A stretch of 49,284 bases of DNA. Origin: a virus. Numbering within the stretch: position 1 is the first letter of the stretch; each line of letters opens with the position of its first letter. Positions 24,061-29,222 of this stretch are shown here, in pieces. The stretch is from IMG/VR virus record IMGVR_UViG_3300031555_003080, positions 1 to 49,284 of that record, one strand, 5' to 3'. Made by a program: the position numbers and the translations under genes. The notes below the pieces were generated by a model. The model saw only the letters and a program-made list of their open reading frames with translations. It did no database searches and was not told the origin of the DNA.

Positions 24061-25011
24061 ATGGCTAATCTAGTTAAAGCTGCCGATATTAGCTTAGATT
24101 CATCTTCTTGGTACCAAAGACTAAGGGCAATTCAATCAAGAATTGAAACAGGCGCTTGGACTGGAGTTACTATGACTTTGACCACTGACCCCGGTATTAA
24201 TACCGGGGCAATGGCCTTAGATGATCATTTAAATAATTTAATTTCAGCTATTTCAGCAGCTACTTCAAATGTTTTTTTGGCTTATGCCGACAAATCACAA
24301 TTACCGAGTTCAGTGTCTCCAGGCACACTAATTAAACAAATTACTTATGATGGAATTGATGCCACTTTAGATTCCATGGAATAGATTTGTAGTAATTGTT
24401 CAACATATCAGACATTCGCTAATAACAGTGGCGATTCGACATATACTACTTATAATAATACTTGTGCAACCAACAGCACTTATGAAAATACCTGTGATAC
24501 TAACTCAACATATTCAGATACCTGTGGAACTAACTCAACGTATTCAGATACCTGTGATACTAACTCAACATATTCAGATACCTGTGATACTTATTCTACT
24601 TATTCTGATACTTGTGCAACTTATTCCACTTATTCAGAAATTGCTACAAATGGTACTGAGATTACAGGTACAGCATATTCAACTGAAAATGCAAATTTAA
24701 GTGTTGCTTCTGGAGCCTATAGTTATAATTGTACTAATTATTGTGCTACTTATAATACAAATGACACATATCTAGAAAGTCAAACTTATGACACTTATTT
24801 AGAGAGTTTGACATATGAAACATATTTAGAAAGCTTAACCTATGAGACTTATTTAGAGAGTTTAATTTGTGAAACTTATGCTGAATCTTTAACTTATTCA
24901 ACATATCTTGAATCTCAAGTTTGCGCGACATATGCAGAGTCTCAAGTATATTCAACTTTTACTCAAAGCGCAGGAAATTCTACAGATGCTACATTTGCAG
25001 TTGTGACTTAA
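24061..25011 (+). CDS. candidate RiPP precursor-like gene: 107-aa N-terminal part, in-frame TAG (24382-24384), then a 209-codon Cys/Tyr/Ser/Thr/Asp-rich tandem-repeat region
   Basis: RBS AAGGAGGG before the ATG at 24061. Past the TAG the same frame stays open to TAA at 25009-25011 and contains no ATG or GTG. It encodes six TC(D/A/G)T(N/Y)STY(S/E)(D/N/E) decapeptide repeats followed by TY(E/D/S)TY(L/A)ES(L/Q) nonapeptide repeats. The repeats differ by synonymous codons (Ser as agt/agc/tct/tca, Leu as tta/ttg/cta/ctt, Glu as gag/gaa), indicating selection at the peptide level. Confidence 0.55.
24385..25011 (+). repeat. tandem 30-nt and 27-nt coding repeats (decapeptide and nonapeptide units)
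   Basis: Direct repeats such as cagatacctgtgatactaactcaacatatt (three near-identical copies) and acttatttagagagtttgacatatgaaacatat-type units. Confidence 0.8.
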
Positions 25012-25044
25012 GCTTTCAATTAAGAGAAAAAGGAGTTTAATAAA

Positions 25045-26412
25045 ATGATAGAACACAGACATACAGTTGTTTTATATACTACAGCAGTTTGTAATTTGAA
25101 TTGTAGATATTGTTTTATTGATAAAAATCCCGCTTTACAGCAGATTGATAAATATTTAGAAGCAAGTTATTTAGATACTCCTAACTATTATTTAGATTTT
25201 GCGAAAGAGGCTTTTTTGCAGGACCGTTTACAAGCGGTTCAATTCTGGGGTGGTGAACCTTCATTAGGTTTCCATCGAGCTTATGGAACAATTGAAAAGT
25301 TTATTAATTATTTCCCTAATTTAAAAGACTTTATGACATCTACCAATTTTGTATCAGATGTTTTCTTTCAAGAGTTCTTTGGATTAATGAATGTCTTAAA
25401 ACAACATCCAGATAGAGAATTTAAATTTTATTTGCAGCTATCTATTGATGGACCTGAATATATTACTGATAATAGTAGAGGTAAGGGAGTAACTAAAAAC
25501 TTTATTAAGCATTTTAGTAGATTAATAGAAGACGCACAAAATAAAGAAAATTTACCAGATAATGTTTCTTTACTATTATCTTTAAAACCAACTTTAGACA
25601 GTTCATCAATTCAATTATTACAAACAAAAGAAGCTGTAAAAGATTATTTTATCTTTTTTGAACAGTTCCAAAAAGCTTATATTGAAAAAAATCATAGAAA
25701 TAATATTAGGTTTAATTTACCAATTCCAAATACAGCAGTTCCTTCTCAACATACTAAAGAGGACGGACAGCGTTTTGCTAATTATTGTAGATTAACAAGA
25801 GAATTAGAATTAGAAAATAAAACTAATAGAATTTTCTCTTTTTATAAATATATTACAAGCTATGCTCCAAGAAAACCAATTTCTTTGCCTATTACACAAT
25901 TCTCTGGTATTTGTCCAGGCCATTGCGGAAACGGCAGAAATTCTATCGGATTGTTGCCTAATAGAATGGTTTCTTGTTGCCATAATGGTTTCGTTGATTT
26001 AATTTCTGATTATAAGCGTTATATTATGAAAAATGAAAGTGCTCATTTAGACGATGCAACTATTGATAAGCAGTTGTTTAAAAACCAACATAATTCTTTA
26101 ACTTTTAGTTTTGATAGTAAAGAGTTTGAAACCTATCAAAAACAATTAGACACTTTTTATTGTCCTAACGATGCATCAAAAGTTGTTAACATGGTTTCAT
26201 CAATTTTATTCTTAGCCAATACAGATCAAATTGATGAAAAATATAAAGATAAAGACCAAGCTCTTGAGGCAGCTTATTTCCTATTAAGAGCATCTGCTTA
26301 TTGCGTAAGAGACAACTTGACTACTGGAAGTATTTTTATGTATCCTCCAGGATTAATGAAATTGTTATTAAATGGAGCTAAAGAAATTATTGAGGGAGGA
26401 ATTGAGCAGTGA
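25045..26412 (+). CDS. radical SAM / SPASM-domain enzyme (peptide-modifying or anSME-like)
   Basis: CNLNCRYC (Cx3Cx2C) near the N-terminus, a GGEPSL motif, and a C-terminal Cys cluster (CPGHCGNG...SCCHNGF). RBS AAAAAGGAG. Confidence 0.75.
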   Translation: MIEHRHTVVLYTTAVCNLNCRYCFIDKNPALQQIDKYLEASYLDTPNYYLDFAKEAFLQDRLQAVQFWGGEPSLGFHRAYGTIEKFINYFPNLKDFMTSTNFVSDVFFQEFFGLMNVLKQHPDREFKFYLQLSIDGPEYITDNSRGKGVTKNFIKHFSRLIEDAQNKENLPDNVSLLLSLKPTLDSSSIQLLQTKEAVKDYFIFFEQFQKAYIEKNHRNNIRFNLPIPNTAVPSQHTKEDGQRFANYCRLTRELELENKTNRIFSFYKYITSYAPRKPISLPITQFSGICPGHCGNGRNSIGLLPNRMVSCCHNGFVDLISDYKRYIMKNESAHLDDATIDKQLFKNQHNSLTFSFDSKEFETYQKQLDTFYCPNDASKVVNMVSSILFLANTDQIDEKYKDKDQALEAAYFLLRASAYCVRDNLTTGSIFMYPPGLMKLLLNGAKEIIEGGIEQ

Positions 26413-27824: not shown

Positions 27825-28303
27825 TTTCTTTGTTCCAGAATGTTTCTACTTTTGGAATTACAGAAGAAAATAAAAATCAAATTGAACAATTTTTTGTTAC
27901 AATTTTAGACACTCCTGATACTAATGCTTTTAAGAATCCTTTATTATTTCAATTAATTCTTTTATTAAAACGTGAAAAGAATTCAAATAAAGTCATTGAC
28001 TTATTAATCGAAGAAATTGAAGTAAAAGCAGTAAGAGTTCTTTTTACTTCTAAAAATTTATTGCAAGAGTCTAACACTCCTTGCTGTGAAGCTCCAAAAA
28101 CTCAATCTCAAACTCTTCCTCCTCCAGAAGGAGCGTCAGGAAAGAGATGGATTGCTAGACCATCTTCTGGAAAAATAACTTTACAGAAATCTGATCAAGA
28201 TAAAAAAATTTATGATGGTATAAGTAATGGATTGCTTTCTCGAATTTATTGGGAGAATAGTGAGAAGGAGGAATCTTGTGATGAATGTCAAGGATGCGAA
28301 TAA
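27791..28303 (+). CDS. hypothetical protein (170 aa) in the rSAM cluster; C-terminal CDECQGCE
   Basis: RBS GGAGG 10 nt upstream. It overlaps both neighbouring genes. No known motif (could be a recognition or accessory protein). Confidence 0.5.
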   Translation: MDAYNSINNFLISLFQNVSTFGITEENKNQIEQFFVTILDTPDTNAFKNPLLFQLILLLKREKNSNKVIDLLIEEIEVKAVRVLFTSKNLLQESNTPCCEAPKTQSQTLPPPEGASGKRWIARPSSGKITLQKSDQDKKIYDGISNGLLSRIYWENSEKEESCDECQGCE

Positions 28304-29222
28304 AGGAAAGAAAAAGATTAGAAGAACTCAAATTACTAAAAGAAAAAATGATAGCGATTATTTCGGTTTATTTTTAATGGATGAGACTTCCAGGCATTCG
28401 CCTGGAGTCTTATACTATTATTGGTATCAGAAGTTTATCCAAGATTTAATTTATTATGATTTAGCCTATTGCAAATGGATGGATTTCCATGATGAAATTA
28501 TTCCTTTGGTTGAAAAAAACCAAAATAGAATGATTTTCCCAGAAGATAATTTAAAAGAGCGCTTTGCTTTATTTGAAGGAAATCCATTTTTAATGGAACA
28601 TAAAAATGCTCCATTAAATCTTGCAAAAGATATTGTTGAAAATGGAATGTATGTTCCTTTTTTATTCGGAGAAGTTGGTGGAGAAATTATTATGAAAAAT
28701 GGTTCTCACCGCCTAAATTCTTTAGCAAATTATTCTCGTACAGTAGCTCCAATTCATAAAAAATATCCTTGCATTATTTTCAAAGATAAGAAAATTTTTG
28801 AAAAGTTTTATATTCTACCTTGGATGTATAGTGGATTTGCTTTTTATATTCCAGTTAATAATGGAGTTCATTTAACTCAACTGTTTGATTTAAATGGAGG
28901 AGAAGTTTCAAAGTATGTCTTTATGTATAATAAAGCTATTAAGAATTTGCCTTTTTTGGCAAATTTAAAAGAAATTACTCCAGCTGAAGCATTTAATAAC
29001 GAGGAAAAATGGGAAGAATTTATTAAGAAGCCTTTAGACAATGATGATTTTAATGAAATCATTAAAGACTATGCTTTAGGAAATACAGACTCTTTAGTGG
29101 CGTTTCAAGATATTGATAAATACGCTCCAACAATATCAAGAACCTTTGATGAAGATTTTAGAAAAATAATGAGTGCAAAACCTGTTTTGCATGAAAACAA
29201 AAAATGGGAACAGACTGAATAA
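28280..29222 (+). CDS. ParB/Srx-like domain protein (paralog 2, about 314 aa)
   Basis: ATG at 28280 is preferred on the basis of RBS AAGGAGG (the six-frame track starts at 28227). Motif LAKDIVENGMYVPFLFGEVGGEIIMKNGSHRLNSL. Confidence 0.55.

Follow-up and report, generated by a model that had tools for sequence, protein, structure and literature searches.

A probable RiPP-like protein-maturation cassette with a TAG-recoded repeat precursor in a phage of an anaerobic Firmicute

In this study, we analysed a 49,284-nt stretch of viral DNA (IMG/VR record IMGVR_UViG_3300031555_003080, positions 1 to 49,284; hereafter the window), which comes from a phage of an anaerobic Firmicute, and found that it carries a gene for a repeat-tailed precursor protein (SUB) followed by genes for two radical S-adenosylmethionine (SAM) enzymes, rSAM1 and rSAM2. 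Together these genes probably constitute a phage-borne cassette for protein maturation that follows the logic of peptides that are ribosomally synthesised and post-translationally modified (RiPPs). Our reading is built on direct observation of the gene structure, the recoding of a TAG codon, the classes of the two enzymes and the strict co-location of the parts. The trio of substrate, rSAM1 and rSAM2 was found in more than 80 loci, mostly on 120–195 kb phage contigs and in metagenome-assembled genomes (MAGs) of Clostridia, with one isolate genome among them. A RiPP-like logic had been proposed in a first-pass annotation of the window, and it is borne out by a conserved N-domain, a hypervariable repeat core, two radical-SAM enzymes encoded directly downstream and this wide recurrence. 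Radical-SAM-dependent maturation of RiPPs or proteins is a known principle; the novelty lies in the two enzymes as a pair, the family of precursors, the phage setting and the reliance on recoding.

The repeat-tail precursor and its in-frame TAG

Judged from its sequence, the precursor (24061–25011, + strand) is a single protein of 316 residues, not a short peptide, the C-terminal 208 residues of which form a repeat tail. This length is obtained when an in-frame TAG is read as Gln, and the open reading frame (ORF) is continuous in the related loci L001 and L004/L005, in which it was called as 314 residues (loci of the family carry the prefix L). The repeat region has no ATG or GTG start and no Shine-Dalgarno sequence of its own, and lies in frame with the 107-codon ORF at 24061–24384. 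The first-pass annotation, which missed both the TAG recoding and the fused precursor, had placed the enzymes right downstream of a repeat peptide; the adjacency to the Cys/Tyr repeats stands, but these repeats are the tail of a larger protein.

The N-terminal part of the precursor is a leader-like conserved domain of ~105 residues with three predicted helices (24061–24381, + strand), which an iterative hidden Markov model (HMM) search recovered in 40 of 63 loci and whose profile is matched by 67 database proteins. No relative of the domain was found in Pfam, NCBIfam, PHROGs, PADLOC or PDB, and the tail had no match in the first four of these. Secondary structure alone was usable from an AlphaFold2 (AF2) model of the domain, which was built on a 27-sequence alignment and reached a predicted local distance difference test (pLDDT) score of 46. 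Right after the domain comes a junction cysteine, Cys110 (24388–24390), which is present in 26 of 28 non-redundant family members. The tail itself contains two arrays on the + strand: array A (24488–24638) has five copies of a 30-nt unit encoding the 10-residue TC[DAG]T[NY]STYS[DE] (Tandem Repeats Finder score 197, 86% matches), and array B (24761–24897) has five copies of a 27-nt unit encoding the 9-residue TY[LA]ES[LQ]x[YC]x, with E-x3-Y or E-x3-C spacing (score 127). The repeat region is rich in Cys, Tyr, Ser and Thr, and the tail as a whole is acidic or neutral with 0% Arg+Lys. Against L004, a 78%-identical relative, dN/dS was 0.10 over the N-domain and 0.26 over the tail, and because of the latter value we consider the tail to be translated and under selection. 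The 208-codon frame stays open in DNA of 34% GC, and the repeat ORF is not a product of chance.

As read from alignments with relatives, TAG is a sense codon for Gln in this phage and code 15 is used sparsely, with four TAG sense codons in 49 kb, needed by four window genes. Three of the 44 window ORFs apparently end in TAG, and readthrough extends all three sensibly; a long open frame (208 codons) follows the TAG in the precursor ORF only. The precursor TAG (24382–24384, + strand) is located exactly at the boundary of N-domain and tail, where L006 also has TAG and L004 has Lys, the junction being DSMEQICSNC in the window (TAG as Q) versus DSMEKVCSNC in L004/L005. L004/L005 in turn have a TAG in the precursor gene where the window has Gln (RLRAI-Q-S), and the precursor gene of L001 has eight in-frame TAGs. 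The other three genes are also on the + strand and are all cut short under standard-code annotation. In the NeuB-like gene (17604–18428, 274 aa), the TAG at 18342–18344 aligns with a Gln of L004 and the next 27 residues are conserved; in a155, which encodes a Q/P/Y-rich protein (20175–20603), the TAG at 20193–20195 aligns with Gln (MNYNYP-Q-PQFQ); and in f105, which encodes a small HExxH metalloprotease-like protein (22653–22970), the ORF extended through the TAG at 22914–22916 stops exactly at a strong terminator. No convincing in-frame sense TAG was seen among the – strand replication genes of the window. Among the residues that other sequences have in TAG columns of the rSAM1 and rSAM2 alignments, Gln is 4.4-fold over background, and relatives rich in TAG carry suppressor tRNA(CUA) genes.

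If the TAG were instead a genuine stop, or the gene a pseudogene, the 107-residue protein alone would be made and the repeats would be non-coding or translated from an internal TTG (24808). The standard code leaves the window genes otherwise intact, and the failure to find a suppressor tRNA(CUA) gene in the 49-kb window counts against recoding: two features of code 15, in-frame TAG aligned with Gln and TAG that does not terminate, are present in the window, whereas the tRNA(CUA) is seen only in relatives. However, 208 in-frame open codons under selection follow the TAG, the frame is continuous in relatives, the TAGs of the NeuB-like gene and a155 are read as Gln and the end of the extended f105 coincides with a terminator, so that a true stop is extremely improbable.

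The DNA polymerase encoded in the window is nearest that of phAss-1 (39% identity, with values of 38–39% over phAss-1, ~140 kb Enterococcus phages and SPbeta-like phages), and phAss-1, the nearest named phage group, uses TAG recoding (PMC10607447). The window phage shares with the recoded gut phages (code 15; PMC10607447; PMC9523058) the reading of TAG as Gln, tRNA(CUA) genes in relatives and this polymerase affinity, but its recoding is very sparse and none of the described recoded phages has been reported with the cassette. Neither rSAM1 nor rSAM2 is present in the GenBank phage collection, where tblastn with both enzymes detected no real homologue and the DNA of the region had no match. The database versions of the window’s own precursor are all 107-residue stubs. 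TAG recoding makes standard gene callers truncate or split the precursor, which may explain why our literature searches found no paper describing the module.

Two other interpretations of the TAG codons were considered. The proposal that TAG marks late genes is weakened by L006, which has TAG in replication-side genes too, and the junction TAG was rejected as a regulated read-through switch, as relatives carry Lys, no codon at that position, or extra upstream TAGs. In L010, L011 and L037 the precursor ORF and rSAM1 are in one frame and the TAG between them is apparently a real stop, a Gln reading fusing the two artificially; therefore, code usage differs between family members. The tRNA(CUA) genes were found in L007, L008, L015, L017, L024, L056 and L061 (e.g., L015 2388–2475) and were labelled ‘Pyl’ by ARAGORN. 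At 87–95 nt they are as long as tRNAs that have a long variable arm, although TAG aligns with Gln. Arrays of 6–19 tRNA genes surround the cassette in many of the tRNA(CUA)-bearing loci, and L056 also has a tmRNA.

Two dissimilar radical-SAM enzymes

The genes for rSAM1 (25045–26412, + strand) and rSAM2 (26409–27824, + strand, with a start at 26409 or 26412) are translationally coupled by the overlap GTGATG. Each enzyme has a CxxxCxxC motif (C16/C20/C23 in rSAM1, C48/C52/C55 in rSAM2) that is invariant in 46 rSAM1 and 57 rSAM2 homologues, in agreement with the first-pass description of two adjacent, coupled radical-SAM genes. A SPASM-type Cys cluster had been ascribed to both enzymes, which proved correct for rSAM2 and not for rSAM1. 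The SPASM pattern C-x9-15-G-x4-C...C-x2-C-x5-C-x3-C...C serves two auxiliary [4Fe-4S] clusters, and rSAM2 has all seven of its cysteines, each invariant (C320, C338, C385, C388, C394, C398 and C417). In rSAM1 the full seven-Cys pattern is missing and the further conserved, auxiliary cysteines are limited to C294, C312 and C420; the enzyme appears to be twitch-like, which would imply a single auxiliary cluster. Relatedness between the two enzymes is confined to the cluster loop and first Cys hairpin, where C294...C312 of rSAM1 aligns with C320...C338 of rSAM2. They also begin differently, rSAM1 starting 15 residues before its cluster motif and rSAM2 having an N-extension of 45 helical residues.

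High numbers of homologues were found for both enzymes. A search of 1.84 billion proteins with rSAM1 yielded 677 representatives at E<=1e-3 and 118 at E<=1e-30, nearly all of ~450 residues, and more than 350 full-length homologues of rSAM2 were identified, nearly all unnamed by their sources. Matches to curated models were far weaker. Pfam PF04055 scored 28.7 bits for rSAM1 (cut-off 29.5) and did not match rSAM2, and the score of rSAM2 against the SPASM model TIGR04085 was 23.5 bits (cut-off 27); because this is under the curated threshold, its SPASM membership rests on motif and fold. The AF2 model of rSAM2 has a pLDDT of 92 and its nearest Foldseek neighbours are anSMEcpe, CteB and SuiB (probability 1.0), all of which act on peptides or proteins. 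In addition, the rSAM2 profile matches CteB in PDB and, over the SPASM region, the SCIFF and PapB maturase models. The NCBIfam matches of both enzymes, which include streptosactin, dynobactin, sactipeptide, ranthipeptide and cyclophane maturases, the anaerobic sulfatase-maturating enzyme (anSME), QhpD, HxsB and viperin, all score 10–30 bits against cut-offs of 180–855, and by these scores neither enzyme belongs to a curated NCBIfam family.

The cassette had previously been likened to freyrasin-type ranthipeptide or triceptide clusters, a placement that the NCBIfam scores of 10–30 bits against cut-offs of 310–855 do not uphold at the family level. The ranthipeptide/SCIFF systems (CteB-CteA; PapB-freyrasin) do share a full SPASM with rSAM2, whose best sequence matches are to their SPASM regions and CteB. 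The freyrasin precursor PapA has repeated Cys...Asp motifs, and array A of the window pairs one Cys with Asp/Asn per 10-residue unit. However, the ranthipeptide models TIGR03974 and NF047865 (PapB) gave only 30.5 and 27.8 bits (cut-offs 425 and 340), and the window system differs in that it has no N-terminal RiPP recognition element (RRE), has a 316-residue substrate with a 105-residue N-domain, is carried by a phage, has many relatives whose tails are almost without Cys and has an obligatory second, twitch-like radical-SAM enzyme. Triceptide systems (XyeB, GrrM/OscB, YhhB, AmcB) resemble it in their repetitive precursors with regularly spaced aromatics and in the weak matches of rSAM1 to cyclophane models, but TIGR04496, TIGR04261, NF041707 and NF041718 score 18–24 bits against cut-offs of 310–450 and there is no preferred residue at +1 to +3 of aromatics across the cassette family. 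Proteusins (PoyA/PoyD, with an NHLP/Nif11-type leader) have, as here, a leader-like domain of ~100 residues before a variable core; they differ in that the N-domain of the window precursor matches no NHLP/Nif11 or other Pfam/NCBIfam model and the enzymes are not PoyD-like.

Two enzymes that act on proteins offer further comparisons. Among structural neighbours of the rSAM2 model anSME ranks first (4k37, E 8.5e-9, TM 0.5–0.6); it shares with rSAM2 a SPASM domain and the lack of an RRE, and its substrate is a full-length protein with many Ser/Cys targets, as that of rSAM2 would be. The identity is 14%, however, the anSME model TIGR03942 scores 26.1 and 10.3 bits against a cut-off of 349, and rSAM2 is paired with a second radical-SAM enzyme; a classification of the pair as anSME or cofactor-biosynthesis enzymes, which would have undercut the first-pass reading, therefore finds no footing in these scores. 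No sulfatase was found among the window proteins scanned, and the translated tail has no C/S-x-P-x-R motif. QhpD is a SPASM enzyme that places several Cys-to-Asp/Glu thioethers in a protein subunit, QhpC, the gamma-subunit of quinohemoprotein amine dehydrogenase, and this is the chemistry that the Cys/Asp/Glu-rich repeats of the window would suggest by analogy. Both window enzymes match the QhpD model TIGR03906 weakly (20–22 bits versus a cut-off of 453), but the genomic context is unrelated and includes no dehydrogenase.

Co-location across the family and candidate products

Family scans found 59 loci from IMG/VR (mostly contigs of 120–195 kb) and 21 from GTDB. The latter are in MAGs of Roseburia, Lachnospiraceae, Oscillospiraceae, Clostridium, Neglectibacter and Gemmiger; the isolate locus, of Clostridiales Family XIII PM5-7, is on a 428-kb contig, and some family members are prophages. 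In all informative loci rSAM1 directly precedes rSAM2, and 63 of 70 loci had a polar repeat ORF upstream of the two enzymes, versus 1 of 72 control regions, the controls having been taken downstream. This pairing bears on the alternative that the enzymes act on a nucleotide, DNA, a cofactor or another non-protein substrate and that the repeat protein is a mere neighbour. Phages often carry radical-SAM enzymes for nucleotide chemistry, NrdG is encoded in the window, and there are weak viperin/pVip and MoaA matches to the N-terminal cluster-binding region. Those matches span only the first ~70 residues, however, and rSAM2, with its complete SPASM domain, has its closest structural neighbours among enzymes acting on peptides or proteins, which together with the co-location makes a non-protein substrate very improbable. 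The recurrence of all five genes that the first-pass annotation had grouped is confined to the closest relatives in the case of two neighbours, p170 and p331, whereas the substrate, rSAM1 and rSAM2 recur throughout.

Considerable variability was found among the tails, which range from 50 to 450 residues and consist of short, hypervariable polar repeats with an overall composition of 16% Ser, 16% Asn, 11% Thr, 11% Gly and 8% Tyr, in precursors of 150–560 residues. Individual tails differ in their content of Cys (0–13%), Asp (0–17%) and aromatic residues (6–29%), and in many relatives the repeats are rich in His and Ser. A strand-like motif that closes the tail at the C-terminus is conserved in many clades. 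Two cassettes, or two precursor genes in tandem, are present in some genomes. The idea that two arrays reflect two chemistries is contradicted by relatives that have a single repeat type and still carry both enzymes. In the closest clade, Asn/Asp/Glu at –2/–3 of Cys was, by eye, not clearly above expectation.

As to how a RiPP-like maturation cassette might work, the N-domain would dock the precursor onto the enzymes in place of the missing RRE-leader pairing, and each enzyme would use a 5'-deoxyadenosyl radical to abstract H atoms in the repeat tail, leading to intramolecular cross-links. In array A these would likely be Cys-to-Asp/Asn thioethers in TCDTNSTYSD units, each of which has one Cys with Asp/Asn neighbours. 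Array B would likely acquire Glu-to-Tyr/Cys links in its E-x3-[Y/C] units, in which Tyr or Cys is at +4, a spacing that recalls the E-x3-Y of PqqA and Cys-Glu thioethers. Through such links a low-complexity tail could become a rigid, protease-resistant structure. The product would most likely remain a protein and not be cut into small peptides, and it may act outside the cytoplasm, on the virion or freed at lysis, against a variable target.

Several points weigh against this proposal. Its cross-link chemistry is one that we infer throughout, and epimerisation or oxidation of Ser/Cys would fit equally well. The docking role of the N-domain rests on analogy because its fold could not be modelled. 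The precursor has no signal peptide, and no protease, transporter or link to the virion was demonstrated for the cassette. The junction Cys is the sole residue type common to the tails, and a search of tails across the family for an aromatic-x-x motif, or any other positional one, found none. Because tail composition varies, a single family-wide cross-link chemistry is hard to name, and Cys thioethers cannot be that chemistry as tail Cys ranges down to 0%.

A cassette of this kind could also operate as a classical RiPP pathway, in which the leader is cleaved and the repeats are multiple cores that yield freyrasin-like thioether or triceptide-like cyclophane peptides, acting as a bacteriocin or toxin at lysis. 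A conserved leader with a hypervariable core is what such a pathway would show; the best weak HMM matches of both enzymes are to RiPP maturases such as GggB, DynA, PapB, SCIFF and cyclophane formers, and an M28 peptidase is encoded near some cassettes. SPbeta, a distant relative by its DNA polymerase, carries the sublancin cluster, and a survey of biosynthetic gene clusters found them to be extremely rare within phage genomes and mostly bacteriocins (10.1101/2020.10.01.322628). We nevertheless consider small-peptide products unlikely. Apart from the family scores far below cut-off described above, the window has no RRE/PqqD, conserved protease, transporter or immunity gene (Pfam, NCBIfam, PHROGs), several tails have no Cys at all, and the bounding of tails of 50–450 residues by the junction Cys and the C-terminal strand-like motif suggests one folded product. 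The search for PqqD/RRE extended to p108, p170, p331 and the enzyme N-termini (Pfam E<=0.1, NCBIfam E<=1; p108 and p170 were not examined at the fold level) and found none, including in the 170-residue p170, for which a profile check had been suggested.

Possibly, the matured protein is a virion component, such as a tail or head fibre or an adhesin, with a variable tail hardened by both enzymes and an N-domain that anchors it to the particle. In several other loci the precursor gene comes immediately after genes of the tail module, namely tape-measure-like, Dit/Tal-like and fibre-like ORFs in L025, a 1428-residue ORF in L034 or ORFs of 485–1210 residues in L013, L029 and L052, and there are weak tail-fibre PHROG matches. 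Furthermore, the Tyr/Ser/Gly/Asn-rich, hypervariable make-up of the tails resembles that of binding surfaces, the N-domain profile weakly matches coiled-coil heptad repeats, and without a signal peptide the protein's only ways out of the cell would be with or within virions or through lysis. In the window, however, a promoter-like site of its own precedes the cassette, which comes after a strong terminator. The surrounding region is an accessory one, the adjoining block of genes a155 to f105 being flanked in Dulem virus 33 by lysis genes on one side and the integrase on the other, and in many loci the cassette is placed among tRNA arrays. As the N-domain also matches no structural-protein family (PHROGs and others), a structural role is on balance somewhat unlikely.

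The HXS defence system, which comprises the effector HxsA with HxS repeats, the radical-SAM enzymes HxsB and HxsC, and HxsD (PMC13128918), appears by analogy to be the closest functional counterpart of the cassette, though family membership fails. The two have the same architecture of a tandem-repeat protein, two dissimilar adjacent radical-SAM enzymes and a small accessory protein (PMC13128918), HXS acts in phage-host conflict, the repeats of many relatives of the window precursor are His/Ser-rich and some family members are in prophages. A phage version, with a repeat effector matured by two radical-SAM enzymes and a small partner, could serve superinfection exclusion or conflict. Homology at the family level is lacking, however: the HxsB model TIGR03978 scores 12.5 bits (cut-off 370), HxsC gives no match and PADLOC matched nothing past the cluster-binding loop. 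In addition, the system is encoded by a phage and not by the host, its precursor has no peptidoglycan-binding domain and no export signal, and its acidic or polar repeats are unlike the basic, DNA-binding HxS repeats. A true phage counterpart of HXS is therefore improbable.

Tentatively, and with less confidence than in the maturation cassette itself, we suggest that the precursors would form a class of viral proteins not recognised before, hypervariable repeat-tail proteins of large gut-Clostridia phages in which the twitch and SPASM enzymes together make a covalently cross-linked scaffold, that YcaO or radical-SAM-glycosyltransferase proteins may add modifications in some lineages, and that the product, carried on the virion surface or set free by lysis, could be a variable module for binding or conflict. 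Genes for a YcaO protein (Pfam 7e-26), a fusion of a radical-SAM enzyme with a family-2 glycosyltransferase (rSAM-GT2), an M28 peptidase and the ‘c1’ family are found beside the cassette in other lineages. These genes (labelled c16, c3, c23 and c1) adjoin the cassette in L012, L015, L017, L019, L024, L026 and others. The c1 protein has ~300 residues with an invariant C-x3-C...C, H and Y, often occurs in two tandem copies, and has no Pfam, NCBIfam or PDB relative.

Radical-SAM/SPASM maturases are a main source of new peptide cross-link chemistry, RiPP-like systems encoded by phages are rare, and the cassette represents a large, coherent and unnamed family, with hundreds of 50%-identity clusters and a defined substrate-enzyme pairing. 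Because there is no recognisable RRE, the precursors are long and the tails vary widely, the enzymes may be unusually permissive or perform new chemistry. If our reading is right, enzymatic ‘RiPP chemistry’ would be applied to whole phage proteins, possibly with new cross-links on Asn/Ser/Gly/Tyr-rich repeats, and the cassette offers a way to learn which accessory protein products large gut phages make use of late in infection.

Cassettes were also found outside gut samples, in L034/L077 (QMRG01000001.1, binned as a Thermoprotei archaeon MAG, Guaymas) and L074 (a Candidatus Ratteibacteria MAG). Their N-domain is shorter and of the ‘FTW’ type, their tails are rich in Asp, Tyr and Ser, and the precursor gene is present as a tandem pair. 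For L034/L077, the assignment to an archaeon is probably a binning artefact of a phage contig.

Genomic setting and lineage-specific neighbours

In line with the virion module and replication module named in the first-pass annotation, the + strand of the window carries the virion-side genes and the – strand those for replication. The + strand genes are very large and mostly unannotatable, and one ORF of 2562 residues (3790–11478; phrog_14959, function not known) dominates the virion-side module. From 29243 on, the – strand encodes RuvC, dUTPase, NrdG/NrdD, guanylate kinase, a DnaE-type polymerase, helicases and a DHH protein. The cassette is at the distal end of the + strand block, in a six-gene unit p108-SUB-rSAM1-rSAM2-p170-p331 that runs head-on to RuvC and is bracketed upstream by a terminator and a promoter match. 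The terminator (22970–23009) is a strong, bidirectional intrinsic one with an 18-bp stem, located between the convergent f105 and a – strand gene (23013–23543). The promoter-like site (23668–23696, + strand), TTGACT and a TG-extended TATAAT separated by 17 nt, is sigma-70-like with 11 of 12 consensus matches plus the TG; it is a consensus match alone, and such sites are not above shuffled expectation in the region.

The first gene of the unit, p108 (23723–24049, + strand), has homologues only in L001 and L004 (dN/dS 0.24 versus L004), and its position in other loci is held by unrelated small proteins. p170 (27791–28303, + strand, 170 residues) has homologues only in L001, L004 and L006, and its 34-nt overlap with the end of rSAM2 is kept in L004 and L006. 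It had been described as a small CxxC protein, but its C-terminal CxxCxxC is not conserved in its three relatives. No match to p108 or p170 was found in Pfam, NCBIfam, PHROGs or PADLOC, nor to p170 in a PDB sequence search. The last gene, p331 (28227–29222, + strand, 331 residues), is found only in the window and L004/L005, and its true start is probably Met19 at 28281. It encodes the motif NGMYVPF...G[ST]HR.N.L, the G[ST]HR.N.L part of which is conserved in four paralogues, and has no Pfam, NCBIfam, PHROG, PADLOC or PDB sequence match. The putative ParB/sulfiredoxin (Srx) fold that the first-pass annotation gave it has the G[ST]HR motif as its sole basis. Profile-profile comparisons linked neither p331 to the widespread downstream c1 family nor p170 and p108 to the small flanking proteins of other loci, and for this reason the three are not treated as core parts of the cassette. 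One p331 paralogue (16890–17567; NGMY.P...G.HR) is directly upstream of the NeuB-family nonulosonic-acid synthase gene (17604–18428; Pfam 9.5e-63). Because of this adjacency, the p331 family may be tied to sugar or glycan functions and not to the radical-SAM cassette.

Upstream of the terminator, the block a155, b77, c250/phrog_16490, d141/phrog_20016, e196 and f105 (20175–22970) recurs in 14–20 related loci. Part of it is also found in L087 (Dulem virus 33, a 40-kb temperate phage) at 8134–10227, between the endolysin and integrase genes, and the block thus behaves like a mobile accessory module.

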